The notes under the pieces: model-generated | The model's input: the letters and a program-made list of their open reading frames with translations, nothing else | What the model was told of the DNA's origin: nothing | Databases searched by the model: none | Made by a program: the position numbers and the translations under genes | Source: a phage | Sequence record: PZ534511.1 | Length of the DNA stretch: 64,000 bases | Reading direction: 5' to 3' (one strand) | In this document: piece after piece, positions 36,481-58,377 of the stretch | How positions within the stretch are numbered: position 1 is the stretch's first letter | Layout of the letters: each line of letters opens with the position of its first letter

Positions 36481-36497
36481 GTAAAGTCAACACGTTT

Positions 36498-37541
36498 TTG
36501 ATGTTGACATCTGTTGAGACAATTGATACGATTTCTTCACTTACAGAGCACGAGAGACGACTCATGAATCTTGAAAAATATTATACACCAGAAGAGTTAG
36601 AGCGCTTGCTCAAAAAATATAGACGCAAACAGAATAACGCACGGAAACGAGATATAGAGTTCGACCTGTCATGGGAAGAATACCTCCTATTTGGTAAAAA
36701 ACTTTTAGGAGATGGAGTATGCGACTATACCCTTATACCTTTTGACATGCACACAGATGAAAACGGGCTGGGGAATCCTTTCTACCCATCTCTGGAGCGG
36801 ATAGATGATGAAGGTCCTTATGCGGCTGATAACTGTTGTGTGGTGGGATTGAGATGCAACTCTCTAAAGGACTGTCTGGTAGATAAAAAGACTGCAGTCT
36901 TGATTAAAGACGAAACTGATCGAAAAATTGTCCAGCAGATGATGCTCCACCTGAGCGAAGAGCGTATGGAGAAATTGAAAGGTGATTATACTTTTGAAGA
37001 TTTCATCTTGCAATATGGAACGGAAGAGGATAAACTAGCACTCTTTGACGAAGAAGAGGAGGAAGATATGCTACCGATGTCTAAAGTTACTTATCGTGCA
37101 CCCAAGAAGCACATTTCCGACATTGTAAACGAGCCTATCACAGAAGAGATTGAAGAAATGACGCAACAGGTGCATGAAGAGGAAAAAGAGACTCAGGAGG
37201 TCGAAGAGGAGCTTACAGAAGAGGTTCCTGCACTACCTGATGATGTTGAGATTGCCAAAGCTTACACTTTCTATTGTCAAACGTTCTACGATGTAGGTAT
37301 GAAAGTTGATCTGTCATTCAGCCAATTTAAGAGTTCGTATATTCGCAAATGCTGTGCTTTAACTGGTGAACGTCTTGGAGCTGGACTTAAACCCCTGTTG
37401 GTGACCGACTGGAATAAAGGTTTCACTAAAGGAAACTTTATGGTAGTATCTCCAATTATGGAGAAAGCTATGACAGATCTTATGAAGACCACCCGCATGA
37501 CAATGACCGAGTTGGCAGGTATTTTCAAACACGTTAAATAA
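36498..37541 (+). CDS. protein with two tandem degenerate HNH/endonuclease VII-like domains (probable true start about 36564, MNLEKYY...)
   Basis: Internal duplication (DLSWEEY..GVCDYT.. and DLSFSQF..CCALTG..); CxxC..N..CN..K-like remnants; track start is TTG inside the promoter; contains internal MSKVTYRA start-like repeat. Confidence 0.4.
   Translation: MMLTSVETIDTISSLTEHERRLMNLEKYYTPEELERLLKKYRRKQNNARKRDIEFDLSWEEYLLFGKKLLGDGVCDYTLIPFDMHTDENGLGNPFYPSLERIDDEGPYAADNCCVVGLRCNSLKDCLVDKKTAVLIKDETDRKIVQQMMLHLSEERMEKLKGDYTFEDFILQYGTEEDKLALFDEEEEEDMLPMSKVTYRAPKKHISDIVNEPITEEIEEMTQQVHEEEKETQEVEEELTEEVPALPDDVEIAKAYTFYCQTFYDVGMKVDLSFSQFKSSYIRKCCALTGERLGAGLKPLLVTDWNKGFTKGNFMVVSPIMEKAMTDLMKTTRMTMTELAGIFKHVK
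36504..36532 (+). promoter_or_regulatory. sigma70-like promoter (TTGACA-17-TACGAT) driving the plus-strand island
   Basis: Hexamers read directly; overlaps the first codons of the over-extended track ORF. Confidence 0.5.
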
Positions 37542-37553
37542 TGACAGGGGCCA

Positions 37554-39035: not shown

Positions 39036-39041
39036 GAGAGG

Positions 39042-39308
39042 ATGGTATTTATGGCAACAGAGGTAGTAATTAAAGCTGAACGCCCAGTTAAAAAAGCTAT
39101 CAACACGTTCCCTGTAGGAACCATTGTGAGCATGATTACAGAGTCAGGCCGTGTATCTACACTGCTAATCGTGAAATCTGCATGCTCATCTTGTGTGTGG
39201 GCATACGATCTTGACGAGAAAGAACTGAAAGATTTTGTTGGGGAGCTGAAAGCAACAGAGCTTGACGCTCGTATCGAAGTATTTGGTGAAACTATGAAGG
39301 AAGAGTAA
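39042..39308 (+). CDS. hypothetical protein
   Basis: Track ORF 88 aa; RBS AGAGAGGATGG. Confidence 0.45.
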   Translation: MVFMATEVVIKAERPVKKAINTFPVGTIVSMITESGRVSTLLIVKSACSSCVWAYDLDEKELKDFVGELKATELDARIEVFGETMKEE

Positions 39309-39571
39309 TGACTACAAAAATCACTATTGCAGAACCAAAAGCTAACACGCAACCTATCGAAAAGTTTAAATGCGGTGAGGTGGTAACATTCACACCGGAT
39401 AATGAAGATGCTAAGATTTTTGCCATGGTCACAGCCGAGTGGATGTGTGACAATACCACACAGGTGCTGCGTTTTGACACCTATCTTACAGATGAAATCA
39501 GGAACGACAAGATTGTGACTGGTGTGGATACTGAGATTATTTTCTACAAGAGCTTTTTAGAGGGTTTCTGA
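39308..39571 (+). CDS. hypothetical protein
   Basis: Track ORF 87 aa; start overlaps the upstream stop. Confidence 0.45.
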   Translation: MTTKITIAEPKANTQPIEKFKCGEVVTFTPDNEDAKIFAMVTAEWMCDNTTQVLRFDTYLTDEIRNDKIVTGVDTEIIFYKSFLEGF

Positions 39572-39572
39572 T

Positions 39573-39806
39573 ATGGCAAAAATTCGTAAATTATCCAGCA
39601 ATCAGGTTGTGAAAGACTTTGAATCTGGAGAGATTTTGTATGTTCGTGATGCAGATGATGAAGGTGAAGATCTTGTTATGCTGGTAGGGCACGCTGAAGA
39701 CGGATGCATACAGGCTGTTTTTCTTGAAACAGCTATGGTGCACTGGATAGAGCTGGACCTGAAAGCACGAAAACCTAAAGCAGAAATCCTGATTTACGAA
39801 GATTAA
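39573..39806 (+). CDS. hypothetical protein
   Basis: Track ORF 77 aa. Confidence 0.45.
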   Translation: MAKIRKLSSNQVVKDFESGEILYVRDADDEGEDLVMLVGHAEDGCIQAVFLETAMVHWIELDLKARKPKAEILIYED

Positions 39807-39822
39807 CAAAAAGGAGATAACC

Positions 39823-40272
39823 GTGTTGAGCAAACGTGAATGCGACAGCATTAGCCTGAATTCTTATAAGAAACAATGGTTTGGGGTGGAAGTTTGCCGA
39901 CTGCGGCTAGGATCCTACCTGAACTTCGTCTATTATGAGAGTGACAGTCGTATCGTTTCTTATGAAGTGTTCTACACTAAGAACACATTCGAACTGCGCC
40001 GTAAAGTAGATGGCGGGAGAACTACCGCTCAGAATAATTGGGAAACTATCCTACCTACAGATGTTATAGGAAGTCCCCTGAATGTATCTGAAGATGAAAA
40101 TCTTATGGTTCATGCTATGATGGGACTTGACAGCTTAGAGCTGGCAATCTATGATATGTCCATCGAAGCAGTTAAGCTGGACTACATCGAAAACACTTTA
40201 GAGGAAGGTATCAAGAAGTTTCTCAGTGAGAAATTAAAAGACCACTTTCATAAGGAGCTATACCTGTTATGA
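39823..40272 (+). CDS. hypothetical protein
   Basis: Track ORF 149 aa; RBS AAAGGAGATAACC. Confidence 0.5.
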   Translation: MLSKRECDSISLNSYKKQWFGVEVCRLRLGSYLNFVYYESDSRIVSYEVFYTKNTFELRRKVDGGRTTAQNNWETILPTDVIGSPLNVSEDENLMVHAMMGLDSLELAIYDMSIEAVKLDYIENTLEEGIKKFLSEKLKDHFHKELYLL

Positions 40273-40514
40273 AGACCCGTAAAGAACGTAACAAAATTTT
40301 ACCTGGAGCTCTAGAACACCTGATGAAGTGCAGATCTATTTGGCACTCTGCCAAGGAAGGGCAGAAGGTGGTTGTGGTTAGTGACAATACCAACCCGTTT
40401 GGAGATTATACCACTATGATGGCCCCGTATGTCCGTGATGGTGTTGTGGAAGTGGTCCCTTACAACGGTCTGCATGAACGGCACTTTGAAAGCACTTTGC
40501 TAGTGGAGCTATAG
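40269..40514 (+). CDS. hypothetical protein
   Basis: Track ORF 81 aa; 4 nt overlap. Confidence 0.45.
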   Translation: MKTRKERNKILPGALEHLMKCRSIWHSAKEGQKVVVVSDNTNPFGDYTTMMAPYVRDGVVEVVPYNGLHERHFESTLLVEL

Positions 40515-40516
40515 TC

Positions 40517-41083
40517 ATGGCGGTCAATGTGGCTTACAACACAGGAAAGCTTGACAGAGACATTGGGTGTCTTGTCCTTTCAGATACAGAAGAGTATTGG
40601 GGTTATGGGTTGCTGTCAGACCCACACCCGAGCAACCTTGTATCAACAGTGCTATACCGCTACGACCCTGTGCCAACGGTACACGACAAAGACATTCACG
40701 ACCTTCGGATCAAGTGTCTGGAAGATCTGCTGAACAATGGTTGCAACGATCTGCGGGTAGCCAAAGAGAAGCTTACAAACATTCACAAAGAGGAAGTGAT
40801 GAGCACCCTCAGTAAGAGATCAGTGCACAAAAAGATGATGCTGAACTTTGCAATGGGTATCTACATGGACGGGTATAAGGGAGGTGATCCGGTCCTCAAG
40901 CTTCGCTGCCCGACACTGTGGGAAAGAGTGGTTGACAGTAAGGACGGCACTGCCCTGCTCGAACTCCACACCGCAGGTTGGATTTGGCGGTATGTAGACG
41001 GATACCCTCTGTGGGCATGTGGACCTGGGGAATTTGTTGACAGACCTAGCGCGGTAGTGGACTTGCTATTACAGTTTGAATAA
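40517..41083 (+). CDS. hypothetical protein
   Basis: Track ORF 188 aa. Confidence 0.5.
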   Translation: MAVNVAYNTGKLDRDIGCLVLSDTEEYWGYGLLSDPHPSNLVSTVLYRYDPVPTVHDKDIHDLRIKCLEDLLNNGCNDLRVAKEKLTNIHKEEVMSTLSKRSVHKKMMLNFAMGIYMDGYKGGDPVLKLRCPTLWERVVDSKDGTALLELHTAGWIWRYVDGYPLWACGPGEFVDRPSAVVDLLLQFE

Positions 41084-41142
41084 AAGGTGAGTTATAAGGT
41101 ATTCATGCACCTACCAACAACAATACAACAGGAGAGACTGAG

Positions 41143-41418
41143 ATGACGAAAGAAGAGGCCGACGTATTAGATTTTGCACTAGAGGCTACGCAGGAGGCTT
41201 TGGTGTTAGCTTGGAAAATGAACCAGCGTGCTGCAGAATGCAACCGTCGCATCAATGAGATTCTGGGCATGTCTATGTATGATTTCACTATGCATGCCGG
41301 AGAGATTCCTGAACTAACTGCAGAGATGAATGATCTTGACAATAAAATTAATATCATTCTGAAGACAGCAGAAACAACCCACCAAACCGCCCGTAAATTT
41401 ATCAACGAGAAGGTGTGA
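41143..41418 (+). CDS. hypothetical protein
   Basis: Track ORF 91 aa; RBS CAGGAGAGACTGAG. Confidence 0.45.
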   Translation: MTKEEADVLDFALEATQEALVLAWKMNQRAAECNRRINEILGMSMYDFTMHAGEIPELTAEMNDLDNKINIILKTAETTHQTARKFINEKV

Positions 41419-41894
41419 ATATGGACTACAGCTACTGCGGGGAAGAAGTTCCTTTTAACTACAGTAATCTTACCACAAGCAATCCATACGAGACTCGCCA
41501 CGGCACACACATCATTGCCATCGACTTTGATGGAACGTTTAATGCGAGCCCTTTCATCTTCTCCCGCCTGATCAGGGATCTGAAGAAGGAGGGGTGGACA
41601 GTCTACCTTGTGACTTTCCGATTCATTACTCAAGACAATGTAGACATTGAGTATTGGCGCAAGGAGCTCGATGTTGGTGTGTTCTACACAGGCGGTGTGC
41701 AGAAGGCAGCCTACTTGGCGCAGTTTGATATCTACCCAGATATCTGGATTGATGATTCTCCGGCATGTATTCCGGCTAAGAATCAGTTAGAGTTTGCAAT
41801 GAAGGAGATTGAGTACAAGTCTGAGGCTAAGCGGAACGGATGGCCCTTTATTATTGAAGATTACCCAGATCCTGAACCGGAGAAAGAGCCATGA
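41415..41894 (+). CDS. HAD-superfamily phosphatase (candidate 5'-deoxynucleotidase)
   Basis: HAD motif I IAIDFDGTF and C-terminal acidic motif IWIDDSP. Confidence 0.5.
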   Translation: MNMDYSYCGEEVPFNYSNLTTSNPYETRHGTHIIAIDFDGTFNASPFIFSRLIRDLKKEGWTVYLVTFRFITQDNVDIEYWRKELDVGVFYTGGVQKAAYLAQFDIYPDIWIDDSPACIPAKNQLEFAMKEIEYKSEAKRNGWPFIIEDYPDPEPEKEP

Positions 41895-42091
41895 GGCGAA
41901 GATATCATTACCTGATGTGGAAGTTATATCATGGTGCTGCTAAAGCTTACCGCACCGTGTTTGGTAATGACAATCACTGCATTATGTTACACCTTACCGC
42001 CATTGAACATCACAATGAGTGGATTCGTGCAATCGTAATAGGTGACAAAGATTTTAAGTAAAGTATTGCTTTCTAGATGGAGACTGATTAA

Positions 42092-42472
42092 ATGTGCAAG
42101 TGTAAATCCTATAATTGGAAAGTGAAAGGTGCCAAGCATCAAAATGTTATCGTTGATGTGCCTAAAAAGCTCCGTGACGGCAAAAAACGTGTGTGCCTTG
42201 ATAAGTGCATGGCTAAGCCTATCATGAGTCTATGGGCGGCAGGATTGAAAACTCTAAACTGCTGCTGTGGTCATAACAAAGATGTTCCAAGTATCATTAT
42301 CCCAGAGGATGCAGACCCTAAAGCTTATGCCAAAATACTGACCCGCTACCCCAGCACCTTCCTGATCGGAAAATGGTGTCACGATGAACTTCAATGGTGG
42401 GTAGCATACGGTAGTATAGGTACTGCTTTTGGCTTCCCAGCTTTGTCAGAGCGCTACGTCAAAGCGTCATAA
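42092..42472 (+). CDS. hypothetical Cys-rich protein
   Basis: Track ORF 126 aa; CKCK..C..C..CCC cluster. Confidence 0.45.
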   Translation: MCKCKSYNWKVKGAKHQNVIVDVPKKLRDGKKRVCLDKCMAKPIMSLWAAGLKTLNCCCGHNKDVPSIIIPEDADPKAYAKILTRYPSTFLIGKWCHDELQWWVAYGSIGTAFGFPALSERYVKAS

Positions 42473-42577
42473 CCTATTTTAAGGCCTCAAACGAGGCCTG
42501 TGCCTTCATAAATTGCCCTACCCTGTGTGATTACCCTCCTGAACAAAATACCCCCCCAGAATCGCTTAAAATTAAAC

Positions 42578-42606
42578 TTGACACCAACACCAGATCTATG
42601 TATGAT
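42578..42606 (+). promoter_or_regulatory. sigma70-like promoter (TTGACA-17-TATGAT)
   Basis: Hexamers read directly; overlaps the first ATG of the track ORF, so the gene probably starts at the RBS-supported Met near 42637. Confidence 0.5.
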
Positions 42607-43044
42607 TATCTCACCAACCGAACAGAGGAGATCGTCATGGATAATCTTGCGGATGTAAATGTCGAAATTGTTAAACTAAAGTTCTTAGGCTTTCGAGACC
42701 CTTATTCTTTAACAGCTATACTAATGGACACTCACTTCACACCAGGTAAAGAGTACACTGCCTTCCGTTATATTTGCGGAGATCACGAATCAGCTTATAG
42801 TGTGAATACAAACCTCGGTGAGGGATATTTCATCAGAGATATCGCAGATCACTTGTGGGGTATGTGGGAGTTGGTGGAGGAAGAGAATAAATCCCTTCCT
42901 AAAGAGATTTGGGTGCACACCTTCCACACAGGTAAGTTTGGAGGTACGGAACATAAATCTATCCACTATGATGAAGAAAGTGCCATTAAACAACAAGCTG
43001 TGCTTGGTGGATCTGTAGAAAAATTTGTTAAATGCGAGGACTGA
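42598..43044 (+). CDS. hypothetical protein (probable start about 42637, MDNLADV...)
   Basis: Internal ATG preceded by AGAGGAGATCGTC RBS. Confidence 0.5.
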   Translation: MYDYLTNRTEEIVMDNLADVNVEIVKLKFLGFRDPYSLTAILMDTHFTPGKEYTAFRYICGDHESAYSVNTNLGEGYFIRDIADHLWGMWELVEEENKSLPKEIWVHTFHTGKFGGTEHKSIHYDEESAIKQQAVLGGSVEKFVKCED

Positions 43045-43047
43045 GAA

Positions 43048-43248
43048 ATGGCTGATTTTTGCAAAGATTGTTCTGAAGAGTTGTTTGGTCGTGACTGCGG
43101 AGATCTGAAAGGACTGATCACAGAGGACCAGTGGAAGGAAGGTTATGCGGCCCCTGTTATCTGTGAAGGCTGTGGTTACACCTATGTCGATCATGAAGGT
43201 AAGCGTGTCCAGCCGTCTGAAGATGGGTCGTGTTGGGAATATTACTAA
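43048..43248 (+). CDS. hypothetical zinc-ribbon protein
   Basis: CKDC ... CEGCG motifs; RBS upstream. Confidence 0.45.
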   Translation: MADFCKDCSEELFGRDCGDLKGLITEDQWKEGYAAPVICEGCGYTYVDHEGKRVQPSEDGSCWEYY

Positions 43249-43253
43249 TTATA

Positions 43254-43287
43254 AAAAGAAAGGGGCCGTCTGGCCCCTTTTTATTTG
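43254..43287. terminator. bidirectional rho-independent terminator between convergent gene blocks
   Basis: AAAAGAAAGGGGCCGTCTGGCCCCTTTTTATTT: perfect GGGGCC/GGCCCC stem flanked by an A-run and a T-run. Confidence 0.7.
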
Positions 43288-43294
43288 CCTCCTG

Positions 43295-46200
43295 TTAACT
43301 AGGGAAGTTTGTATAAGCTTCGAGATGGTATTGCTGGTTACCAGGTAGCATAACACCTATGCTTGCAACACCTAATGTTCTACCACCAGGGTTCCACTGA
43401 AACTTAAATCCAATCCAACCCGAGCTTCTGGCTGCATCAATGTTGTCACTGTACCCAAAAGTGGCTAGACCATCAACACCTGCTCCGAAAAGCAGTTGTA
43501 TCTGGTTCCTTGGTAGGCCAATAATTTCAGGTATGTAAGCACCAAAAAATGTAGGGTTGGTGGTTGTGGTCGGATTGTTCATGACCGGACCGGTAAAGAC
43601 CCTCATATTGGACGTTCCTGCAGGTCTAGGGTAAGCCCCGTCAAGAGGATTTCCTTCCCAAATAAACCACTGAGGTGCCATCTGTCTGACAGTAAACGAT
43701 GTTGAAGACGTTTTGCGGCCTGCATCATCTCTAACTACAAACTTTATGGTGACATTCCCAGTAGCTTTAAATGTTACCAGCCCTGTGGTGGCATCCACTG
43801 TTGCAATGTTGGTATTACTACTTTCCCAAGTCTTTCTAATCCCGGATACGTTGGAAGGGGTGATAGAAGGTTCCTGCATCTGCAGTTTACCGCCCACAAT
43901 CCCTATGCCGTTGCCCGGATTATACAGCACACCGACCTCGTCTATAATGTTCCCTGCTTTGAGACTATACTTCCTTGAGAAGTTGTAAGTTCCGTTATAA
44001 GTGTGTGTCCCTGAGAATGTGACATCTGCCTTCCCGTAAGAGATGCAAACCAACGCATACTTCCTGTCAGGCAACGTTTCTCCAGTCTCTGGGTGAGTTT
44101 TACCTACCTGGAACACACTCGGGTCAGTAGAGTCGTGACTATCACTAACGGAGCTTGGACCGCCCATCAACTGTGACAAACAATTCCTTACCCATGTCCA
44201 GTTATTATCGCTGGAGAAGTCCACAGTCAAATCAAACACAACCCACTCATTTGGCTTCCACACAGGTGTTGCAATGGACTTGCCTACACCGCCTCCTTGG
44301 AGTGTTGCCGACTGTTCGGTGATCAGTGCCGCATAGGCCAGAGTTCCTAAACTCAGAGTCTGGCTTGCTGTCCTCACTACCTTAGAATCAGCATCTGTGA
44401 AGTTGTTGATGATTTGGAATGTGCCATAAGTGTTTTTACAGGTAATTCTGGCGTTCAGCGTGTCAATCTTCCTCACATCTGCCATAGCAGTGTTAGACAC
44501 AGAGAAGTCAGAAGCTTTAGCTGAGTTTGCCGCAACAGCAGGATCAACGTTAAGAGTTGCGTTGAACTGACAGGCAGGGGTAACCAGCAGCTTGTTATCA
44601 CCTATTTGCTTCCATGAAATACTTTGGACAGGTAGATTCCATTTAATACCTGAGAAAACTTTAGCAACCCTTGGCCCCAAAGCTCCAGTCCTGTTGTCTT
44701 TACAGCACATAGACATGGTGATCGTTGACGGAGTTGCCTGACCGAACAATTCCTGTGCTTTTGCAGAGGACATGGTGTAGAAATTGTCCTTAACAAACTC
44801 ATCAGCGGCTAAAGATCCATCAGCCCTCCACCACTGGACCTGATACCCTGTTTTATCCCAGCCTCCAACCTGCTTCAAGTCCTCCCAAGAGATTTCCAGA
44901 TCCCCCGTGGTAGGGTTGATTGCAGCAGTTCCTGGTGTACCGGATGACCACAATGGGATATCAAACCACGCAGGTTTAACAGATTGCACTGCATTAGGAC
45001 CTATTGCAGCAGCAAGTTGTTGACCCATCAGCACGCGAGCATCTTTCACCAGGCCCCATTCTATCATAGACCCAGAGTAACCTTCTTTCTTGTAGGCAGA
45101 GGATCCGTTCAAATGGATGAGCCTGCTGCAGTCGAAGCCATACGCTCCACCACCGTTAGGATCTGCAAAGTTGGTTATGATTCTATCCCTAATATTTTTC
45201 CATGCCCTACCTCCAATCTCGTAGTCATGGTCATAACATCTTTGCAACGTTGTCCAGCAAATGATTGCCATTCTTCTGCCGCCTGTGAACCCGAAAGCGC
45301 CGTCATTCAGCTCTTTCCACAGGTAACAGTTGGTTGTCCACATAGCCCTGTGGATATTGAACCAGTTTATAGATTTGGCTGAGTTGTTCCACTGAGTCCC
45401 AGGTAATTCAGGCCACACTGCATTGACTAGCATGTCCTCTGTACCGGCATCTATTAAGAAGCCTCTTACCTTCTTGCCCATACCTACCCTGTCTTTAGCA
45501 ATCCAATTGCCAAACAGTCTCAGTTTTGGACCATAAACAACATCCTCTGGGTGCTCAAAAGAGACATACTTTAAGTAGATTGTTGGGTCACCGTAGGTGC
45601 CATCACAAACACTTTTGTGCATGTTTTCGCCAAGGTCTAGACGAAGCCCCGTCACTACTTTAGACGTGTCGGTGAATTTGTCTGTTAAGTCAAATTCATA
45701 CCACCACCACCCACCACCTAGCATAAATTTCTTGCATCGCACAGCGTCTGTGTCAGATATTCTCTTATCCCCTGCAAAAGGTGAATCAGCAAACTGATAG
45801 TGCAGAGCAGTCTCAAATAGGTGGGTGGAAGTTCCGTTCTCTGCAAGAACTTGCTTACCTATCAGATCGCACTTAATGATCATCACAACACGCTTGTATC
45901 CGTTTGTTACCGGAACTTGCATAGATATGGATGTTCCATCCATGTTCGATCTTAGATCACTCATGATGATATAGGGGTCGACAGCGTTGCCTAAAGTTTC
46001 AGGCCCTGGAATTATCTTGTATTTCTTGACCTGGCCCATAAATCTGTCACTGGCGTAAGTTGCAGCCTCAAAACAAGAGCCACCACCAGGTAATTCTCCA
46101 GGTCCCCAGAAAAATGCCCCATAGCAGTTATAGAACCACTTATTAGGGTCGTATTTGTTCTTGAAGGTCTGGACCTCGTTGGCCTGTTTTGTCAAGAAAA

Positions 46201-48972: not shown

Positions 48973-50718
48973 TTAACGTTGTGCAATTACTACGTCTACG
49001 ATATCACCAACACCACAATATGTTAATTGCAGCAAGGTAACACTATTAGCCTTGTTATTAATAACAGGCGTTGCCGACAGGATAGCATACTTATCGTGCA
49101 AAGTCACGTTGTGACCTACAGCATCCTGAATGACATAGATAACCGCAGTGAATGGATAAGGTTTATCTTCCGCTGATGTACCAGGCCATTGTCCTATTGT
49201 AAAATCCCCTTTCGCGTGGACAACATACATACTGGCCTGCCCGTTAGGTGTCCATGTCCCACTGGACGCGTCAACCTCCTCTAAATCAAAATCTACCTTT
49301 CCTGCGTGGAAAGTAGGGGCAGTAATGGTTTTACCCGCCTCAATTTCTTGAGAGGTGGTTATCTTGCCACTGGAGTTAATGCCATTACAAACAAAGTTGA
49401 CATTAGAGAAGTCTGGCAGCCACCCAGTCACTGTGCCGGATATTTCAAGGTTGTGAAGGTAGGTGGTGCCCGTCCCTGCTGCGTTTAAACTAACATCTCC
49501 ATTTACCTGCAAGTTTCTGGTAACGTTGCAGTTTTCAGAGTTTGCAGTTGTTGCAGTTAAAGTAGTGGTTGTCAGCTCGGTAATTACACCTTTGTTGGCT
49601 GTAAGCCCTTCCCCTTCAAAAGTTGCACGCTCATTGACTCTTAGGGTATTCAGAGCTATGTTTTGGATAGAGGCTGTACCTCGAATAACTACAGATCCGC
49701 CAACTTCTAAATCACCATTTATTAATGCGTCCCCCGTGCTTTCAATATAGCTAGGGTAAATCATGGTGCCATCGACAGAGTAGGTTATCCCTGTAACAGT
49801 GCCTGTCACCTCAAGGTTCTTAACCCTGGTGGTTCCATCTACCTGCAATGTCGGTTCGGTTGCTGCCTTCATGGCATTACCACGAATGTACACGTAGTCA
49901 AAAAAGTTATTACCTAGACCATCAAAATGCACATCGTTATTATTAGCCACTGGTTTCCCAGAAGTTATAGTGTCAGCTATAACCCTGTGGGTGGACACTT
50001 CATGAGGTTGCAGCTCTGTGCTTCTCCAGTCTGCATGCTTAGGATCACTCCACGCAAAAGTAAGTGTAGAAGTATTTGCCGTGAGGATTAGGTTCCTGAA
50101 GCGTGCAGTAGAATCTGCTCCATTAACAGGCCCATGTAAGGTGAGTGTGCCACCAACTATAGTGTTAGCAAGTTCTGTAAGACCTTTTACCACCAAAGAT
50201 CCTACAGTAACTTTCATTCCCTCCATGGCTTCAAATATGCTATCCACATAGTCAACAACAAACTCTGTGTTTGCTATAGACTCGGATTTGTCGTCCATTG
50301 GAGGCGTAGGTACTCGCGGGTCACCTTCGAACCTCGGACTGTTAAGTTTTGCGTAGTATTTTGCCATTACTGCAGAATCGGTATATAATCTCCAGTTTGG
50401 AGATTGTGAAGGATCTGCTGGCATTCTAACCGGGTTAGATTTTGATGCTGCGGGAGCGTACCACCACTGAGGGCCTGTGTCCCCTTTAAACTCGTACAGC
50501 TGGTTAAAAACTGTTGTGGATGCACCATACGCCCAAGGGATCGGTGGCGTTTTAAAATAAAGGGTGTCAAGCATGGCTTTTCGTACCGTAGGGATGGTGG
50601 TCCCATCCTCTACGACAACTTCATCCACAGCGTTACCGTTGACAATCAGGTGCAAACGTTCAGAATCAACAATTACTTGATCTACCGCCTGCTCAAAGCT
50701 TGTCATGTCTTGCGCCAT
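48973..50718 (-). CDS. tail fibre / tailspike protein (581 aa)
   Basis: Thr/Gly/Asn-rich repetitive beta-strand composition; position in the tail module. Confidence 0.5.
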   Translation of the reverse strand: MAQDMTSFEQAVDQVIVDSERLHLIVNGNAVDEVVVEDGTTIPTVRKAMLDTLYFKTPPIPWAYGASTTVFNQLYEFKGDTGPQWWYAPAASKSNPVRMPADPSQSPNWRLYTDSAVMAKYYAKLNSPRFEGDPRVPTPPMDDKSESIANTEFVVDYVDSIFEAMEGMKVTVGSLVVKGLTELANTIVGGTLTLHGPVNGADSTARFRNLILTANTSTLTFAWSDPKHADWRSTELQPHEVSTHRVIADTITSGKPVANNNDVHFDGLGNNFFDYVYIRGNAMKAATEPTLQVDGTTRVKNLEVTGTVTGITYSVDGTMIYPSYIESTGDALINGDLEVGGSVVIRGTASIQNIALNTLRVNERATFEGEGLTANKGVITELTTTTLTATTANSENCNVTRNLQVNGDVSLNAAGTGTTYLHNLEISGTVTGWLPDFSNVNFVCNGINSSGKITTSQEIEAGKTITAPTFHAGKVDFDLEEVDASSGTWTPNGQASMYVVHAKGDFTIGQWPGTSAEDKPYPFTAVIYVIQDAVGHNVTLHDKYAILSATPVINNKANSVTLLQLTYCGVGDIVDVVIAQR

Positions 50719-50727: not shown

Positions 50728-50994
50728 TTAAGCTTTTTGCTCTTCGTTTTTAACGTGGTCAGGGTGCTGGCAACCCCACCGGAGCGAGATGAATTTGCTA
50801 ATAAGCTGGGGGCAAGCTACTGAAGGCGCGTATATCCACGCATACCATTCAGGAAGCGTATCATTATACCCCATATGAATAAACACCCCAGTCATCACCG
50901 CCATGCCTATGTTCGACCATAGCTTAGATTGGGACACTTTCGTAGGGTCATCAGATGCCGCAACCAGTCCCCATAAAAACTGAGTTAGTTTCAT
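50728..50994 (-). CDS. hypothetical small membrane protein
   Basis: Predicted TM segment WSNIGMAVMTGVFIHMGY; sits between fibre genes. Confidence 0.4.
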   Translation of the reverse strand: MKLTQFLWGLVAASDDPTKVSQSKLWSNIGMAVMTGVFIHMGYNDTLPEWYAWIYAPSVACPQLISKFISLRWGCQHPDHVKNEEQKA

Positions 50995-51005
50995 TTACCC
51001 TCTTT

Positions 51006-52052
51006 TTAAGCATAAGATATAGTGATCCATTGACCATTTACAAGTTTTTGGATAGCACCTGTCCAGTAATCACCTTGATAAGGGTGTTTATAAGCGTAGT
51101 TACCAGAGCACATCACATGTCCAGGGTAGACTCTTGACTCTCTGTAGGTGGTTTTAAAACGGTTTGCTATCCTTACATCATCAACCCCTCTGCTAGGCAT
51201 AGGGATAGTAAGGTTACCGCTACTGTCTGCGCCGTTACCATTTACCCTGCGGACCACGTTTCTTCCACCAACTGTTGCATATTGGCCCCTGACGGTTTCA
51301 TCGTTACAATCAACTCTTCCACCTATTTGAGCGCTTCCGCAGGATTGTTGTCCATTAACAGTGGCTCTTGGTATCGTGACCGCATTGGCATTTGCAGAGG
51401 AACTTTTTGCATCGTTGCATTCAAGATTTCCTTGGATAGCCAGTCTTGCACGGTTGGCAGTTATAGCATTGAGCTTCATAGCTGAAAACACAGGCTGCCC
51501 ACCAGAAGGTTGAAATCTCCAACGGAACCCATCTATTTGGTGAGAAGGATCATCAAGGTCTGTGCCGTCAGCACCACCGATGTTGTCCATAATCCAGAAA
51601 TCCATCGTCGTCTTGTCTGGAGTTATGGTGGTATATATTGCCGCACTGTCTGTTGACGCAGATGCAAACTCGATTCTTTGAAGACCTAAAGTTTGAGTCT
51701 GAGTCATTATGTCTCCAGACTTGTCAACATATAGATCGTCCATTTCTTCAGGTGAGTATACATTGAGAACTTGACGTGCAGCAGCTTTGTCTGGAACGTC
51801 TGCTAGATTATTAGTGACCCTTAAGAATCTATTATCCCATCCTGGGACAACATCTTCTGTTAAATGCTTCAACCACGCAGAAAGCATGTGAAGTTCAAAG
51901 TTAACAACTTCACATGCCATTCTTTGTGTCATATCCCAACCTTTCAATCTCTCTTCTTTTTTTGGTTGAGATTTATTCAACTCTCCCGTATTTTCAAGCA
52001 CAACATCCTGATTGGCCCAAATATCAAGAGGGATAACTGGTTTAGTCATCAC
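51006..52052 (-). CDS. tail fibre protein, paralogue 2 (348 aa)
   Basis: N-terminus (PLDIWANQDVVL..KGWDMTQ) and C-terminus (QKLVNGQWITISYA) conserved with 53064..54104; 30 bp identical DNA at the 3' ends (51011-51040 vs 53069-53098). Confidence 0.6.
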   Translation of the reverse strand: MMTKPVIPLDIWANQDVVLENTGELNKSQPKKEERLKGWDMTQRMACEVVNFELHMLSAWLKHLTEDVVPGWDNRFLRVTNNLADVPDKAAARQVLNVYSPEEMDDLYVDKSGDIMTQTQTLGLQRIEFASASTDSAAIYTTITPDKTTMDFWIMDNIGGADGTDLDDPSHQIDGFRWRFQPSGGQPVFSAMKLNAITANRARLAIQGNLECNDAKSSSANANAVTIPRATVNGQQSCGSAQIGGRVDCNDETVRGQYATVGGRNVVRRVNGNGADSSGNLTIPMPSRGVDDVRIANRFKTTYRESRVYPGHVMCSGNYAYKHPYQGDYWTGAIQKLVNGQWITISYA

Positions 52053-52138
52053 GTTCTCCTGAGAAAATTCCTTAGGACTATTTTAACACTTTAGAGAACA
52101 AAATGCAAGAACGGAGTCCTTTCCGTTCTGACCTTTGT

Positions 52139-52453
52139 TTACCTTTTACTATGCTCTACGAGCATGTGCAAAATCTTTTGTACATCAGCTCGGATGCCGG
52201 AGACATCTGTCCTGACATCCTGCTTAAGGTCGTTAATATCGGCCTCTAGCTTGCTTAACCGAGTCTCGATAACGGAATCAAGTCTATCTTTTGTAACCAT
52301 ACTGTTTTTCACTAAGATGAGGTCTTTCTCCAGCTCATCCAACCTCTTGGAAATGCCTTTCCATTTGGTGTGCCACTGGTTGAAAGCCCATACACAGATC
52401 GGGACAACGGTACCCATGCAGATACCGTACAATGCCGCCAAATCCAACTCCAC
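52139..52453 (-). CDS. hypothetical membrane-anchored coiled-coil protein
   Basis: N-terminal TM LAALYGICMGTVVPICVWAF followed by heptad-like region. Confidence 0.4.
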   Translation of the reverse strand: MELDLAALYGICMGTVVPICVWAFNQWHTKWKGISKRLDELEKDLILVKNSMVTKDRLDSVIETRLSKLEADINDLKQDVRTDVSGIRADVQKILHMLVEHSKR

Positions 52454-52464
52454 AACACCTCCTC

Positions 52465-53049
52465 TTAGAGGGTAGGTCGCTCCGGGAAGAAAATGTCAGG
52501 GGCTTTAGATGTATCTATTTCAAGAAGTTTTACCCTGTACATTTTCAAATCTCTGATGTTACGTTTCTGGTCATCAGTAAGATCATATTCAAGGTCAATC
52601 ATGTCTTGATAGGCACCAATTCTAGCAGTAGCCCAAGCAAGTTCTGTCTCTATGACACCCTCTGCCTGTTGAACAAAGAATTCATTGTCTGTGACAAATT
52701 CATCACCAACTAAACGCAAAGCGTCGTGGTGAAGCATAATGTTTTCTGGTACCTCTTCTTTTTTGGCGATAACCACACGAAGACCTGGAGCAGGCCATAA
52801 GGCATCAGGTTCTTCTGTAGATGTCTTAAGAATTCCCTTCTCGTCAACAAGTAGGAAGATACACCCTGGATTTTCTTGTCGTAATGTTCGTGACTGCACA
52901 TACCAATCACCATCATCATTACGTAAAAAATACCCAGTGTATGCGGTGTAATCCTCGACCTCTTGAGGGGTCAGCTCCTTGGTTTCCTTGTTGGAGTAGT
53001 ATTCGCCAGATCCCGGTTGGTAAAGTTTAAACTCTTGAAGTATTTTCAT
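52465..53049 (-). CDS. putative tail fibre assembly/chaperone protein
   Basis: Immediately downstream of a fibre gene; size about 190 aa; assignment mainly by synteny. Confidence 0.35.
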   Translation of the reverse strand: MKILQEFKLYQPGSGEYYSNKETKELTPQEVEDYTAYTGYFLRNDDGDWYVQSRTLRQENPGCIFLLVDEKGILKTSTEEPDALWPAPGLRVVIAKKEEVPENIMLHHDALRLVGDEFVTDNEFFVQQAEGVIETELAWATARIGAYQDMIDLEYDLTDDQKRNIRDLKMYRVKLLEIDTSKAPDIFFPERPTL

Positions 53050-53063: not shown

Positions 53064-54104
53064 CTATGCATAATTAACAGTGATCCATTGACCATTTACA
53101 AGTTTTTGTAAAGGTCCTGCCCAGTAGGTTGAACCACGCATCTCTTTTTTGTCACCGAAATGCCAGCCTGTGACAACGTAGCCGTTGCGGATTGGAGATT
53201 CAGAAACGCCGTCCACAAGTCTTGCACCGATTCTGATGTCTTGCACACCTGTCTGCGGGATAGTGATCGTTACATCACCGTTACCGTTAGCCGTCACTCC
53301 ATTCACGGAGCGCACCACATTTCTGTTACCGACAACACAGTGCTGGCTTCTTACAACCATACTGTCACAACTTGCACCACCATTAACATATACTGACCCA
53401 GCCGTCAACTGACTAGCCACATTACAGTTGGTGAATGTTGCTGTATTGCTGATAGTAAGGTTATTGCACCTCATGTTATCGACAACTTCAACATTGCCTA
53501 CCACTTTCAACAGCGCACGATTAGCCGTGATCGCGTTAAGGTACATCAAAGTGAACTCTGGATTAATATCCGGCTGAGTTGGCTGGAATCTCCAACGAAA
53601 CGCATCTACTGTAGATGTACCACCATCATCAAACGACCCGGTATTATCACTTAACCCAAAGTCGAGAGTTGTCTTATCTGGGCCAATAGTTGTCTCTATC
53701 CAAGCCTTATCTGTCTCGGCAGCTTTAAAGTTGATACGTTGCAACCCCAAGGGGCCTGTCATTGTATCACCTGTAACTTTTACATACCTGGCGTCTGCCT
53801 CTTCCTTAGTGATAATCCCAAGGTTTCTACGGGCAACAGGGATGTTCAAAAGATCGCTCAAGTTATTATCACGTACCAGATAACGGCCTTCTTGAGCGGG
53901 GATCTGCTCGTCAGCAATGTATTTTGCCCAAGTTCCGAGCATATTGAAAATATAGTTAAGTTCTTCACAGGATGGCTTTTGACCAAGATCCCAACCTTTT
54001 CTCCACAAATCATCAATCGGGCGTAGCCTGTTCTGTCTGTGGGTGTTAGGCAGAACCTGATCCTCCTCTGCCCAAATCTCTAATGGAAAACTAGGTTTTG
54101 ACAT
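53064..54104 (-). CDS. tail fibre protein, paralogue 1 (346 aa)
   Basis: See 51006..52052; conserved termini, divergent central region. Confidence 0.6.
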   Translation of the reverse strand: MSKPSFPLEIWAEEDQVLPNTHRQNRLRPIDDLWRKGWDLGQKPSCEELNYIFNMLGTWAKYIADEQIPAQEGRYLVRDNNLSDLLNIPVARRNLGIITKEEADARYVKVTGDTMTGPLGLQRINFKAAETDKAWIETTIGPDKTTLDFGLSDNTGSFDDGGTSTVDAFRWRFQPTQPDINPEFTLMYLNAITANRALLKVVGNVEVVDNMRCNNLTISNTATFTNCNVASQLTAGSVYVNGGASCDSMVVRSQHCVVGNRNVVRSVNGVTANGNGDVTITIPQTGVQDIRIGARLVDGVSESPIRNGYVVTGWHFGDKKEMRGSTYWAGPLQKLVNGQWITVNYA

Positions 54105-54116: not shown

Positions 54117-56189
54117 TTATGAGAAGTCTGGAGGGACAACATCTTCTACATACCCTTTCAGAGCAACCTGCCCCATATGAAGCACGGTAGAATCTCTGGC
54201 TGTAACAGTGATGCTGTCAGACATTACTTGCGGGTATGCCCACACATACTGTTTTACCTCAGGGTATCTATACTCTATGGTTGCCATGTTTCCGCAGATA
54301 CATCTCCATAAAAATTCTTGGTAATTCCTGGTTGGGTCGTAGCCATATACCGGAGCAAGCTCTTTACTAGGAACGAACCCTGCAAGGTATTGTATTTCAG
54401 ACGGTTGCCAACCTAACTTAACGATAGGTATGTTTACAGACTCTTTTGCCTTTTCAATACCTCCCTGCATCACCCAATCGTAGCACTCGGTGCAGAAGAA
54501 ATCAAGAGCACCTGCTTCTTTTTTATATTGGTCAGCAAGGTTCAGCTTTTGCGTAAGCTCTGTTTCCATAATGGTTGGGAAAAACAGCAGAGCTGTCATC
54601 TGAGCTGATGCAGCGTGTGCCTTTATTGCCTTTGAAATGGCCGCAATACGAGCGCCAAGCTTACCACGACAAAATGCTACATACTTGTCGTAAACACCGC
54701 CAGTTTTAGGATCGTCAATAGTCCCAATATCTAATGCATACTCACCTGTCTCATCATAAAACGCCTGCTTTGTAGGGTAATCATAAATACAAGGTCTACG
54801 AGTATCGGTATTGTACCACCACCACGGTTCACCAACCTGCATAATCACTGGCAGGTTGTTTCTCATAGCGGCTGATGCAAAATTCTTAAATACTGCAGTA
54901 AGGAAATTCATACCCTCTTCAATGGTTGGAGACAGGAGGTAGCTACAGGGTGTATACCCTGTTTTAGCGTAGTTATCGTTCCAGTCTCTTTGGGTCCATT
55001 CCAACGGGCAGGCATCGCTGAAAAGCTCAAAACTTACAGATTGCATAACGTCGAAGTTATGTCGTTTGGCATTGTACATAAAATCATCATGCCATTTATA
55101 AGCTGCAGCGTTTAGCGCCCCTGTTCTGTTTATAGACCATTGGGTTCCTGACCATGTGTAGTCATAATAATGACTCATACCAACATAATGGTTTATGGTT
55201 CCGGTATAGCCCAGACGCTTGATATTGTTCAACACCCTTAAAGGAGATACGTTCCACATATCGTCATATGCGGTGCAGATCCCAACGTCGTGCTCTTTAA
55301 CCTGAATATTGTTAAGTTGCATCATTTTCCAGCCTGTGTCTGGCTGGAGCAGATCTAGGCGCAACTCACACTCTACATTTTCCGTTCTCGGGTCTGTGCT
55401 ATTACTTACCCAGTCTTTAGGCATAAGCGGTATTAAAATCCTTCTCACCTGTCGAGGATCAACACCCATCATGTTGTTGTTCTGATCCATCCCGACGCAG
55501 TCCTCGAAATCAATATGAATCTCTGCAACATTCTTATCCTCTGAGATGCTGACAGCATATTGAGCTAAAGGAACATAGATGATTGTGCCATCAACAAGGT
55601 CTACAGTCATAATCATCTTTTCAGGGGTGGAGAAGTTGCTGGCATTGGTTATTGACATTCTGAACCAAAGCTTGGTGTTTCTCATCTCATAGTGATCATC
55701 AAACCCAATACCGAAATGGTCATACTTGTCAACTGTTTCCCAAATGCACCCAGCCATACCTCCATATGTTCTTGACACTAAACGGTTAATACAACAGTTG
55801 TTATCTGCAACAATACAGGTACTTTCAGTCTGCTGAGTAGTTGTAACCCAATACCTTGGGTGAAACATTCTCTCCTCAACAGTATCCCAAGATATCCTGT
55901 CAAGATTCTCATCTGAAACTATTGTACATTTCGCCCTTTGTGTTCCAATCATCACCCCTTGAGATTTTGATGAAAACTCCATAAAGAAGCTTCTTGGCAA
56001 CCTGTTGGGTAATTTGTCAACAATTTCCACTGGGATCTCAATACTGGTTGCCCCAATTGGGATAGTTACATCACCCTCAACATGATTATAATCCCTACCA
56101 GGAACGGCAGTATCCTGAACTGTGCGGTAATGAAACCGTGCAGCCATTGTAGAGTAATCACGGTAAGGTTTAAAAATAGCTGTTGCCAT
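54117..56189 (-). CDS. tail/baseplate-associated structural protein (690 aa)
   Basis: Large ORF in the tail module; Trp/Tyr-rich; function not assignable by eye. Confidence 0.45.
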   Translation of the reverse strand: MATAIFKPYRDYSTMAARFHYRTVQDTAVPGRDYNHVEGDVTIPIGATSIEIPVEIVDKLPNRLPRSFFMEFSSKSQGVMIGTQRAKCTIVSDENLDRISWDTVEERMFHPRYWVTTTQQTESTCIVADNNCCINRLVSRTYGGMAGCIWETVDKYDHFGIGFDDHYEMRNTKLWFRMSITNASNFSTPEKMIMTVDLVDGTIIYVPLAQYAVSISEDKNVAEIHIDFEDCVGMDQNNNMMGVDPRQVRRILIPLMPKDWVSNSTDPRTENVECELRLDLLQPDTGWKMMQLNNIQVKEHDVGICTAYDDMWNVSPLRVLNNIKRLGYTGTINHYVGMSHYYDYTWSGTQWSINRTGALNAAAYKWHDDFMYNAKRHNFDVMQSVSFELFSDACPLEWTQRDWNDNYAKTGYTPCSYLLSPTIEEGMNFLTAVFKNFASAAMRNNLPVIMQVGEPWWWYNTDTRRPCIYDYPTKQAFYDETGEYALDIGTIDDPKTGGVYDKYVAFCRGKLGARIAAISKAIKAHAASAQMTALLFFPTIMETELTQKLNLADQYKKEAGALDFFCTECYDWVMQGGIEKAKESVNIPIVKLGWQPSEIQYLAGFVPSKELAPVYGYDPTRNYQEFLWRCICGNMATIEYRYPEVKQYVWAYPQVMSDSITVTARDSTVLHMGQVALKGYVEDVVPPDFS

Positions 56190-56886: not shown

Positions 56887-58377
56887 TTAAATAGTTTGTT
56901 GGAAAGTTATATTACTTTCGTCGAGGTCAAACACCTCGGTCATGTTCGCAACAATATCGTTTGTAGTGTAAGCTTCATCAGAAGCTCCTACGGATTTAAC
57001 TTGAATTACCAGCCTATTAAATCTGCCTATTGACACAGCAGCAGATGCAGCACCTACCAATTGGATATTATACAACGTATCTGCAACATCCAGTCCGTTA
57101 ACAACCTGCAAAAGAGCCTCTATAATGGCATCTTTTTCGGTTGTAGAAAGCGCAGCACCGGAGTAGGTAATTCTTACATCTAGGCGGTAGGTGTTTGCCT
57201 TGGAGTAATAAATTCTTTCAGTTTGACCGTCAGATGTAGTGACATCGTAGAAAATATTACCATAAGTCCTGTTCGTACAGGCTATAGTTTGGTAAAGTGC
57301 TTGGCAAATGTCTTCCGTTGCACCACCAAACACAACCACTTGGAACTTGTAAGGGGGTATACCTTTAGCATCAGTTTTATCGGTGTTATTGGAGAACACT
57401 CTCACTTTCTCAACACCTTTCACCTCGCTTACAGCGCTAAGGATTGCAGGACGGGTAGCCTTAGATGTTAACTGTTTTGTGCTGGAAGCTCTTAAGCGAT
57501 ACTCTGAGTCTTTCTCAACATCCCTGCCCTCATTGAATCTTTCTCGGTTGGTAAGCTTGATAAATCCACTGGGAGTAGGTGACATTGTTGTCACGGTTTC
57601 TGCCTCTCTTGACAACTCACCCGCCTCGTTAGCGATAACATCCAGTGTGATAGTTCTTTCCCCTACAATCGGGGATACTCTGAAATCTACTCTACTATTA
57701 AGTCCAACTTGATCAAGATTCGAATTGTACCCTATCCACAACGTTCCTGTCAACATATCTATCTGAATCAAATCGTCGTTCAACAGGGTTGTATTATCGA
57801 CAATGAACTGCTTAATCTCTCCGTAAAAGCTTGGCAGATCAGAAGAGTCCAGAGACTTATCTGTTAAAACCAGACTTTTTGTTTTGATACTTCCATCTGT
57901 CTGGTTGGTAATTTGAAAGTTGTATTTACCAATCCTTAGGTCTGGGGCATTTATTCTGTGAGCAATAAGATTCCCTGCTACTTGCACATCGTTGCTAAGA
58001 ACAAAGTTGCCACTGTCCAGCGTATAAGTTTTGGAATCATAAATCATATTGTACGGCACAGTTGTGTTGATTGTCAACTGGCAGGTACCTGATGATTTAG
58101 AACGGCCTCTTCGGTAAATACCTTGTCTTCCAAGAAGCTCATCTAGGTAAATACCTTCTGCCCCATACAGCGTCTGTGATGCGTATACAGATGCTGCCAT
58201 AAGAATAAGTTGATACTCTCGCTCGTTGAAGATAGTGGTCAGCTTATCTGCAACGGAGTTACTCTGTACGTTGAAGTTTTCGCCAAAAGCACGGATCAGG
58301 CTTTGCTTAGTTTCAACGATTAGGTCATTTAGGGTTGGTATAACGAAACCAGCCTCTGTCAATCCATACTTAGCCAC
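56887..58377 (-). CDS. putative baseplate/tail-tip protein (496 aa)
   Basis: Immediately downstream of the gpJ-like gene; structural-protein composition. Confidence 0.45.
   Translation of the reverse strand: MAKYGLTEAGFVIPTLNDLIVETKQSLIRAFGENFNVQSNSVADKLTTIFNEREYQLILMAASVYASQTLYGAEGIYLDELLGRQGIYRRGRSKSSGTCQLTINTTVPYNMIYDSKTYTLDSGNFVLSNDVQVAGNLIAHRINAPDLRIGKYNFQITNQTDGSIKTKSLVLTDKSLDSSDLPSFYGEIKQFIVDNTTLLNDDLIQIDMLTGTLWIGYNSNLDQVGLNSRVDFRVSPIVGERTITLDVIANEAGELSREAETVTTMSPTPSGFIKLTNRERFNEGRDVEKDSEYRLRASSTKQLTSKATRPAILSAVSEVKGVEKVRVFSNNTDKTDAKGIPPYKFQVVVFGGATEDICQALYQTIACTNRTYGNIFYDVTTSDGQTERIYYSKANTYRLDVRITYSGAALSTTEKDAIIEALLQVVNGLDVADTLYNIQLVGAASAAVSIGRFNRLVIQVKSVGASDEAYTTNDIVANMTEVFDLDESNITFQQTI

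Follow-up and report, generated by a model that had tools for sequence, protein, structure and literature searches.

The window analysed here is a 64,000-nucleotide stretch of phage DNA (sequence record PZ534511.1) in which two short open reading frames (ORFs) of the tail fibre region code for small membrane proteins of 88 and 104 amino acids (aa), termed A88 and B104. Sequence comparison and gene context point to A88 as the best holin candidate and to B104 as a putative membrane-tethered partner in lysis. The part of the window from 50.0 to 53.2 kb is 100% identical to Escherichia phage A51.2 and at least 95% identical to most of the 117 matching records, chiefly rV5-like phages (Vequintavirus); the window is that of an rV5-like Vequintavirus coliphage. 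Both ORFs had been located in a preliminary description of this DNA, and they are present exactly there on the minus strand. Their placement between fibre genes agrees with the minus-strand gene order, which is given below with the two genes and their signals first.

50728-50994, minus strand: A88, 88 aa, ATG start, orthologue of rV5 gp29
50998-51003, minus strand: Shine-Dalgarno-like site AGAGGG of A88, 3 nucleotides (nt) before the start codon and 2 nt past the stop codon of the upstream fibre gene
52139-52453, minus strand: B104, 104 aa, GTG start, orthologue of rV5 gp31
52458-52464, minus strand: Shine-Dalgarno site GAGGAGG of B104, 4 nt before the start codon, overlapping the TAA stop codon of the preceding gene (52465-52467)
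52108-52129, minus strand: terminator-like hairpin with a weak T tract and a stem of 8-9 bp, located in the gap of 86 nt that follows B104
52465-53049, minus strand: Tfa tail fibre assembly chaperone, 194 aa (gp32; Caudo_TAP, E 1e-11; phrog_136)
51006-52052, minus strand: second short tail fibre paralogue (rV5 gp30; phrog_4465, E 2e-166)
53064-54104, minus strand: short tail fibre (rV5 gp33)
48973-50718, minus strand: 581-aa fibre (gp28)
after gp28, minus strand: 1875-aa fibre with Ig domains (gp27)
54117-56189, minus strand: 690-aa protein with a TIM-barrel 'non-contractile tail sheath' domain
between the 690-aa protein and the baseplate J-like gene, minus strand: 228-aa baseplate protein
56887-58377, minus strand: baseplate J-like gene

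Both ORFs are annotated in public rV5-like records. In tblastn searches 369 phage records contained A88 and 224 contained B104; length and motifs are retained even at identities as low as 23-35%, and the matches come from phages of Escherichia, Salmonella, Klebsiella, Cronobacter, Pectobacterium, Erwinia, Serratia and Aeromonas. Given public annotation and conservation in hundreds of records, A88 and B104 are real genes and not chance ORFs. They are separated from neighbouring genes by gaps of 9-12 nt, and no convincing promoter for either was found within the tail fibre operon; from their position inside this operon both are predicted to be expressed late. The overlap of the B104 Shine-Dalgarno site with the tfa stop codon indicates tight coupling of these two genes. 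Sixteen records named 'Campylobacter phage' (host C. jejuni; e.g. MG065655, 'Campylobacter phage C2') carry gene copies with 98-99.7% identity; their host attribution looks doubtful, and the records may stem from contaminating coliphages.

Two segments of A88, at about residues 25-43 and 50-71, are weakly hydrophobic. The maximum Kyte-Doolittle (KD) value in this copy is 1.05, and family means are 1.4-1.7 for the first and 1.0-1.6 for the second helix. In the AlphaFold2 (AF2) model, which is of low confidence (predicted local distance difference test, pLDDT, 61), helices span residues 22-43 and 49-72. The C-terminal tail RWGCQHPDHVKNEEQKA is charged, and the family mean net charge is +2.8 at the N-terminus and -1.3 in the loop. 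From the positive charge at the N-terminus, the acidic loop and the charged tail, a class II topology with both termini inside (N-in/C-in) is predicted, i.e. A88 would be a helical hairpin. It had been expected that each ORF encodes a single transmembrane (TM) helix; this applies to B104, which has a strong N-terminal TM segment, but not to A88 with its two weak segments. The rV5 paper reported no TM domain (TMD) for gp29 with TMHMM and Phobius, as can be explained by the weak hydrophobicity of both segments. With 88 aa, two hydrophobic helices and a charged tail, A88 conforms to the small-membrane-protein character of holins.

Further evidence came from the family to which A88 belongs. A88 matched phrog_1322 ('membrane protein') over its full length (residues 1-87 of 87; E 2.7e-32). 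When a profile made from 29 A88 relatives was run against 1.84 billion proteins, 139 clusters (50% identity) were retrieved at E<=1e-3. All of the 126 aligned relatives matched phrog_1322, and six of them matched Pfam family DUF2644 (PF10841; best E 6.3e-7). The family signature consists of S-H-T-K-x-W-x-N, a first TM segment, a short acidic loop, a second TM segment, S-K-x-L-S-L-[RK]-[YW]-G and a charged tail that varies; in three-TM forms, as found among some members, a further N-terminal TM segment of high hydrophobicity is present. A sequence-profile search of the PDB with the family gave zero matches, and a full-text literature search for DUF2644 yielded no paper. Alignment of the Vequintavirinae subfamily with the subfamily from Mu-like phages in hhalign (99.35% probability, E 6e-21, 79 columns) establishes, at the level of sequence, that A88 is homologous to a membrane protein of the lysis cassette of Mu-like phages. 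An unannotated three-TM member was also seen in Stenotrophomonas phage Moby (NC_048802, at about 5990-6318 on the plus strand of the locus), where it is followed by an annotated terminator. The Moby record has a hypothetical coding sequence on the opposite strand over the same bases, which is probably a mis-annotation, and several Menderavirus records appear alike in that the matches list 'none' or 'terminator' as features.

The gene order in the Mu-like phages bears on the functional reading of A88. Ralstonia phage RS138 has a late activator gene followed by those for an endolysin, the A88 homologue and an Rz-like spanin. Pseudomonas phage Bise encodes, in this sequence, Mor, an M15-type endolysin, the A88 homologue, an Rz-like protein, a 92-aa coiled-coil protein with an N-terminal TM segment, a protein taken as Mu gp26-like from its position and an inspection of its sequence (not from a match to a hidden Markov model) and TerS. 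This is the order of the late operon of Mu, with the 92-aa protein at the place of Mu gp25. On a metagenomic contig, too, the A88 homologue is followed by an Rz-like protein. In total, 80 viral loci with the Mu-like subfamily were gathered, 62 of them non-redundant, and in 51 of the latter a co-directional ORF lies just upstream. A peptidoglycan hydrolase occupies this upstream position in about 26-28 of the 51 loci. These hydrolases come from six to seven unrelated families: VanY/M15_4 (14 loci), Amidase_2 (six), M15_3 (two), GH108, GH19, Amidase_3 and CHAP. Downstream, a protein of 114-224 aa with an N-terminal TM segment of the i-spanin type is present at 24 loci (three of these proteins reach Pfam Phage_lysis), and a Mor/C-type activator immediately precedes the endolysin in 13 of 40 loci. 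The endolysins next to the A88 homologues of Bise and RS138 have no N-terminal hydrophobic segment and therefore need a hole-forming holin; in both phages, and in many other viral loci, the A88 homologue is the sole multi-TM protein between soluble endolysin and spanin. This place between endolysin and i-spanin is the one classically taken by holins. The authors describing BME3, a phi92-like phage, ascribed 'topology II holin' features to its 81-aa homologue in silico and annotated it as 'membrane protein-holin'. Cassettes with an A88 homologue also encode small coiled-coil proteins whose TM segment is central or C-terminal, namely a 73-aa protein in RS138 (6023-6244) and a 144-aa protein on a metagenomic contig (613-1047). 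Both are XhlA-like in design and may represent a second recurrent coiled-coil membrane partner besides the type with an N-terminal TM segment.

Components of the lysis system of rV5 are consistent with a holin of this kind. The endolysin gp89 (156 aa) has no signal-anchor-release (SAR) or other TM segment and no signal-anchor, and reads to us as a lambda R-like enzyme. With a soluble endolysin, a canonical holin is needed. The spanins are an Rz/Rz1-type pair (ORF67/66) beside the terminase gene (TerL). On the rV5 genome gp29 lies at 20.9 kb, the spanin genes at 60.9-61.6 kb and the endolysin gene at 71.5 kb; adjacency of the holin gene to endolysin and spanin genes, present for the Mu-like homologues, is thus absent for gp29. 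Such adjacency is not strictly required of a holin gene: t of T4 is likewise apart from e, and there the order is 37 (fibre), 38 (fibre assembly) and t (holin). Among the lysis functions suggested earlier for both ORFs, that of a holin has therefore gained support for the 88-aa ORF only, from the homology to Mu-like endolysin/spanin cassettes and from the soluble endolysin. Taken together, homology, context and predicted topology make A88 the best holin candidate, putatively of the class II type. The combination of a SAR endolysin with a pinholin or releasin was ruled out for rV5, as gp89 has no N-terminal hydrophobic segment; for the related phage KP12 a SAR-type endolysin has been reported, and its authors suggest SAR endolysin plus pinholin/releasin. 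Directly after the endolysin gene, outside the window, rV5 ORF90 (2110-2316 of that locus) codes for a 68-aa protein with a strongly hydrophobic, signal- or lipoprotein-like N-terminus (MKDFLLAILFMAACLACGVVFAG...) and has its own predicted sigma-70 promoter.

B104 differs from A88 in architecture. One strong TM segment is located at residues 5-24 (KD 1.9 over 19 residues), and the AF2 model (pLDDT 87.5) shows helices at 5-50 and 55-103 with a break at 51-54. The coiled-coil tail noted earlier for this ORF is borne out by hydropathy and by the model as a long helical coiled coil after the TM segment. Acidic residues mark the N-terminus (MELDL) and basic ones the stretch that follows the TM helix (KWKGISKR); both features are shared throughout the family. 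They predict an N-out/C-in orientation, in which the coiled coil would be cytoplasmic on a membrane tether.

At the sequence level B104 matched phrog_5345, in which no function is assigned, with E 1.5e-48. Searches of Pfam and NCBIfam returned coiled-coil noise at most, Foldseek comparison of the model with BFVD gave no match below E 0.47, and a word-indexed homologue search retrieved close relatives alone. In the profile search of the PDB, the best match of the B104 family was 6h9l (E 5e-4, marginal and subject to coiled-coil bias), in which eMVTKd of the family aligns to MATKED repeats. In parallel trimeric coiled coils, the motif [aliphatic]-A-T-K-[polar]-[DE] gives rise to beta-layers (Hartmann et al. 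2016, PMC4786415). The corresponding motif of B104, MVTKD (MVTKDR), occupies residues 52-56, exactly at the helix break of the AF2 model, and its position is conserved: MVTKE(K) or MVSKD(S) is found in sister genera and YATKAE in phi92-like phages, and AVTQD was also seen. B104 is thus likely to form a trimeric stalk, as judged from this motif.

Comparison of the locus across phage groups revealed that the two genes are parts of a larger arrangement. In PVP-SE1, phiTE, KpS8, CR9 and Av-05 the order is fibre, Tfa, B104 homologue (B), a further membrane protein (X), A88 homologue (A) and next fibre. In these sister genera B comprises 104-112 aa, X 128-157 aa with four to five TM segments, and A 86-91 aa. 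Stop and start codons of the three genes overlap or nearly abut in PVP-SE1, phiTE, KpS8 and Av-05; in CR9 X is shorter and a gap of 68 nt separates B and X. X was found in 110 records, none of which is a Vequintavirus. Scans of X against Pfam and NCBIfam returned nothing beyond coiled-coil noise. In the window, the second short fibre gene sits exactly at the place of X between B104 and A88, which suggests that X was displaced by duplication or insertion of a short fibre gene, and the hairpin after B104 probably marks the junction where this replacement took place. In phi92- and phAPEC8-like phages A lies just upstream of a baseplate wedge gene, and a B-like protein of 111-113 aa still follows Tfa (hhalign probability 76% against the B family). 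In an Aeromonas phage the order is Tfa-like protein, B (hhalign 97%), an unannotated gap and A. B genes directly follow Tfa in every lineage examined. As B, X where present, and A recur across lineages, they constitute an old, conserved block of membrane protein genes inside the fibre module.

Several observations concern the neighbouring genes and the window at large. The two short fibres gp30 and gp33 share 42% identity according to the rV5 paper, and only the copy at 53064-54104 is followed by a gene for a Tfa chaperone. The start of the second copy is GTG at 52052 (348 aa) in the ORF list and ATG at 52049 (347 aa) in public records; the sequence reads aggagaacGTGATG. The 690-aa protein contains a Calx-beta domain besides the N-terminal (PF23844) and TIM-barrel (PF23845) domains of 'non-contractile tail sheath protein' (E 4e-80), even though the phage tail is contractile; BASEL records label it a lateral fibre and assign glycosidase and deacetylase domains to it. 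GC skew is positive at about 36000-44000 and negative elsewhere in the window; the change marks a block of plus-strand genes between two minus-strand regions and matches the switch of transcription units in rV5 (genes 11-26).

We consider it probable, with moderate confidence, that A88 is the holin and B104 a membrane-tethered partner or regulator of lysis, both being relics of the conserved block. The two ORFs would be what remains of an ancestral set of B (one TM segment plus coiled coil), X (four TM segments) and A (two TM segments), carried in the late tail fibre operon directly after the fibre chaperone, much like t of T4 after 38. During late expression A88 would build up as an N-in/C-in hairpin in the inner membrane and form holes at a set time, giving the soluble endolysin gp89 access to the cell wall; disruption of the outer membrane by the Rz/Rz1-type spanins would follow. 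The N-terminal TM segment of B104 would serve as its anchor and leave about 80 residues in the cytoplasm as a parallel, probably trimeric beta-layer coiled coil. Its partner or target would most likely be the holin or the lysis pathway, in an antiholin- or releasin-like manner, rather than receptors. Topology, hole formation, late timing, the oligomeric state of B104 and its interaction with A88 are elements that we infer here. The role of B104 as a holin partner or regulator is suggested by the tight coupling of B, X and A in sister genera. Its invariant place after Tfa keeps a role in fibre assembly alive as a rival; for B104 a lysis regulator is most likely, and a fibre assembly factor comes next. 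A more elaborate version, in which the block is a lysis-timing module of the fibre operon and B104, translated right after the fibre chaperone, senses or binds trimeric fibre or Tfa intermediates and gates A88, lysis thereby being tied to the completion of virions as an assembly checkpoint, is held to be quite improbable.

As to the releasin-like aspect, the releasin of Mu, gp25, is a 99-aa protein that starts with MDL and has an N-terminal TM segment predicted to be N-out/C-in, a basic junction and a helical cytoplasmic domain (PMC9239132). It is required for release of the SAR endolysin of Mu and belongs to family DUF2730 (PF10805) (Chamblee et al. 2022, PMC9239132), which also occurs in Mu-like phages with cytoplasmic endolysins (PMC9239132). 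B104 has this architecture by prediction. Moreover, about ten of the 62 Mu-like loci encode, 0.5-2 kb downstream of the A gene, a coiled-coil protein (80-134 aa) that has its TM segment at the N-terminus.

The following findings weigh against the proposed roles of A88 and B104: (i) in this type of genome A88 adjoins neither endolysin nor spanin genes, the endolysin gene being about 50 kb away; (ii) A88 had no match in Pfam, DUF2644 (PF10841) included, or in NCBIfam; (iii) its hydrophobicity is low (KD 1.05), TMHMM and Phobius missed rV5 gp29, and its AF2 model is of low confidence; (iv) for the family members of Mu-like phages, it is solely gene position and a process of elimination that lead to the holin assignment; (v) Mu itself lyses without a holin (PMC9239132), so that a non-holin role in lysis is conceivable; (vi) in the literature no experiment was found on any member of the A or B family, the BME3 homologue included; (vii) the most constant neighbour of B104 is Tfa and not A88, and a distance of four genes separates A from B in phi92-like phages; (viii) no member of the B family matched PF10805, and hhalign probabilities of the family were 0.5% against Mu gp25 and 18.8% against an alignment of ten proteins from the gp25 position. 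Alignments of the B family with the 92-aa protein of Bise and with the 144-aa metagenomic protein were not significant, and searches of related loci with gp25 and the Bise protein, made to capture the diversity of DUF2730, retrieved close relatives only. B104 was therefore set aside as a releasin proper: given the lack of significant similarity and of a SAR domain in the rV5 endolysin, the term releasin-like denotes analogy and not family membership.

Data on virions and on gene function in related phages were also inspected. The mass spectrometry (MS) table of rV5 virions lists no tryptic peptide of A88 or B104. In the corresponding analysis of phage CB7, the products CB7_31, 36 and 37 were detected but none of CB7_32-35, of which CB7_33-35 should be the B, X and A homologues according to the gene order of phiTE and CR9. 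Absence from virion MS is weak evidence, as small membrane proteins are easily missed. Proteins of the A88 or B104 type are not mentioned in the cryo-electron microscopy papers on phiTE and phi92, and a literature search found neither CRISPR interference nor transposon data on rV5-like phages.

The proximity of both genes to Tfa and fibre genes raises the question of whether A88 and B104 are membrane-anchored morphogenesis factors, B104 folding or docking trimeric fibres or baseplates together with Tfa and A88 serving the fibre that lacks a Tfa. B follows Tfa in all lineages examined, even where A has moved, and the ribosome-binding site of B104 overlaps the tfa stop codon. A trimer, the form that the fibres also have, is suggested by the beta-layer motif, and A88 directly follows the fibre paralogue without Tfa. 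B104 also gave weak coiled-coil matches to fibritin, reovirus sigma-1 and a short tail fibre, but these are generic and have E-values of at least 0.015. We judge this explanation unlikely, as the Mu-like homologues of A88 lie in lysis cassettes far from fibre genes, and in PVP-SE1, phiTE and their relatives A comes after X and not after a fibre gene. In addition, we know of no precedent for a membrane-integral fibre chaperone. Equally doubtful is the idea that A88 has an accessory part in lysis, as an antiholin or a regulator of another kind, and that the true holin of rV5 is another small membrane protein. The rV5 paper proposed gp129 (78 aa, two predicted TMDs, basic C-terminus), holins and antiholins are often encoded together in lysis cassettes, and Mu demonstrates that membrane proteins of lysis need not be holins. 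Yet the proposal of gp129 was made on topology alone, and its gene lies outside the window, at 94 kb of rV5, among small non-structural ORFs. Confirmed holins are all products of late genes (PMC9239132), and A88 is encoded within the late fibre operon. Against an accessory role stands also the sole multi-TM protein between soluble endolysin and spanin in Bise, RS138 and many other loci, which is the A88 homologue.

The preliminary description had further considered superinfection exclusion or receptor masking by factors encoded next to receptor-binding proteins; examples would be T5 Llp, Cor or T4 Imm and Sp. A88 and B104 are small membrane proteins adjoining fibre genes, and T4 Imm (two TM segments, 83 aa) and Sp (one TM segment, 97 aa) are similar in size and topology. 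Nevertheless, both families are conserved across phages of different hosts and receptors (Escherichia, Salmonella, Klebsiella, Cronobacter, flagellotropic Pectobacterium and Aeromonas), with 46-56% identity of A between genera while the neighbouring fibres diverge. Moreover, co-transcription with late structural genes would be too late for exclusion, and the A family resides in lysis cassettes elsewhere. No match of A88 or B104 to known exclusion proteins was found in Pfam, PHROG or NCBIfam, PADLOC not having been searched. Conservation independent of host and receptor, together with the location in a late structural operon, thus speaks against this suggestion, which we regard as very unlikely. 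Least probable of all is that B104 acts as an i-spanin-like protein or as a unimolecular disruptor of the outer membrane, even though an N-terminal TM segment followed by a helical domain of about 80 residues is reminiscent of Rz-type proteins. The charges of B104 predict N-out/C-in, opposite to the topology of an i-spanin. A lipoprotein partner is neither adjacent nor embedded; the ORF list contained no ORF with a lipobox in or beside B104, the single overlapping ORF on the same strand being devoid of one. rV5 already possesses its Rz/Rz1-type pair ORF67/66 beside the terminase gene, and the spanin-like option offered earlier was hence abandoned.

An assignment of A88 as the holin would be of interest as rV5-like phages (Vequintavirus and the relatives PVP-SE1, phiTE, phi92 and phAPEC8) are isolated widely and find use in cocktails for biocontrol and therapy. 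The holin of this group has never been firmly assigned, and published guesses are based on topology and point to other genes. If A88 serves this function, the lysis pathway of the group would be complete, and the labels 'membrane protein', 'moron' and DUF would have to be corrected in hundreds of genomes, including Mu-like prophages (139 clusters). In addition, a testable target for the engineering of lysis timing would be available. The family phrog_1322/DUF2644 could then represent a large unrecognised holin family of Mu-like temperate phages and large virulent myoviruses. With B104, an unusual TM-anchored cytoplasmic coiled coil with a beta-layer motif would join the few membrane proteins other than holins that are associated with lysis; why its gene always comes after that of a fibre chaperone is a further question.

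Compared with known systems, A88 resembles class II holins such as S68 of phage 21 in being small, with two hydrophobic helices, a positive N-terminus predicted to be cytoplasmic and a charged C-terminal tail. It differs from characterised holins in that no sequence similarity is detectable in Pfam, NCBIfam or the PDB and in its unusually low hydrophobicity. With respect to gene context it parallels t of T4, as it is located in a late structural operon, apart from the endolysin gene and just downstream of a block of fibre and fibre chaperone genes, whereas the T protein itself has one TM segment and a large periplasmic domain. With phrog_1322 and DUF2644, A88 shares the pattern S-H/Q-T/S-K-x-W-x-N ... 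S-K-x-I/L-x-L-R/K-W/Y-G. PHROGs classifies this family as 'moron / membrane protein' with no function, DUF2644 reaches six distant members but not A88, and in the large virulent phages the gene is found away from the neighbourhood of the endolysin gene.

B104 is comparable to Mu gp25 in its length of about 100 aa, the M-[DE]-L start, the N-terminal TM segment, the basic junction and the virtual absence of a periplasmic part, and proteins of its design hold the gp25 position in Mu-like phages with an A gene. Unlike gp25, it is encoded more than five genes (about 50 kb) from the endolysin gene, in a phage whose endolysin has no SAR domain to be released, and it has a beta-layer motif, of which gp25 has none. 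Set beside the beta-layer coiled coils (Tcar0761, DUF1640/MCUR1-CCDC90B and 6h9l), B104 differs by a single motif instead of repeats and, as in most members of its family, by V replacing A at position 2, and its membrane anchor is N-terminal while that of DUF1640 is C-terminal. What the B family has in common with these proteins is the motif x-[VA]-[TS]-K-[DEA] at a fixed position and, in the case of DUF1640, anchorage in the membrane.

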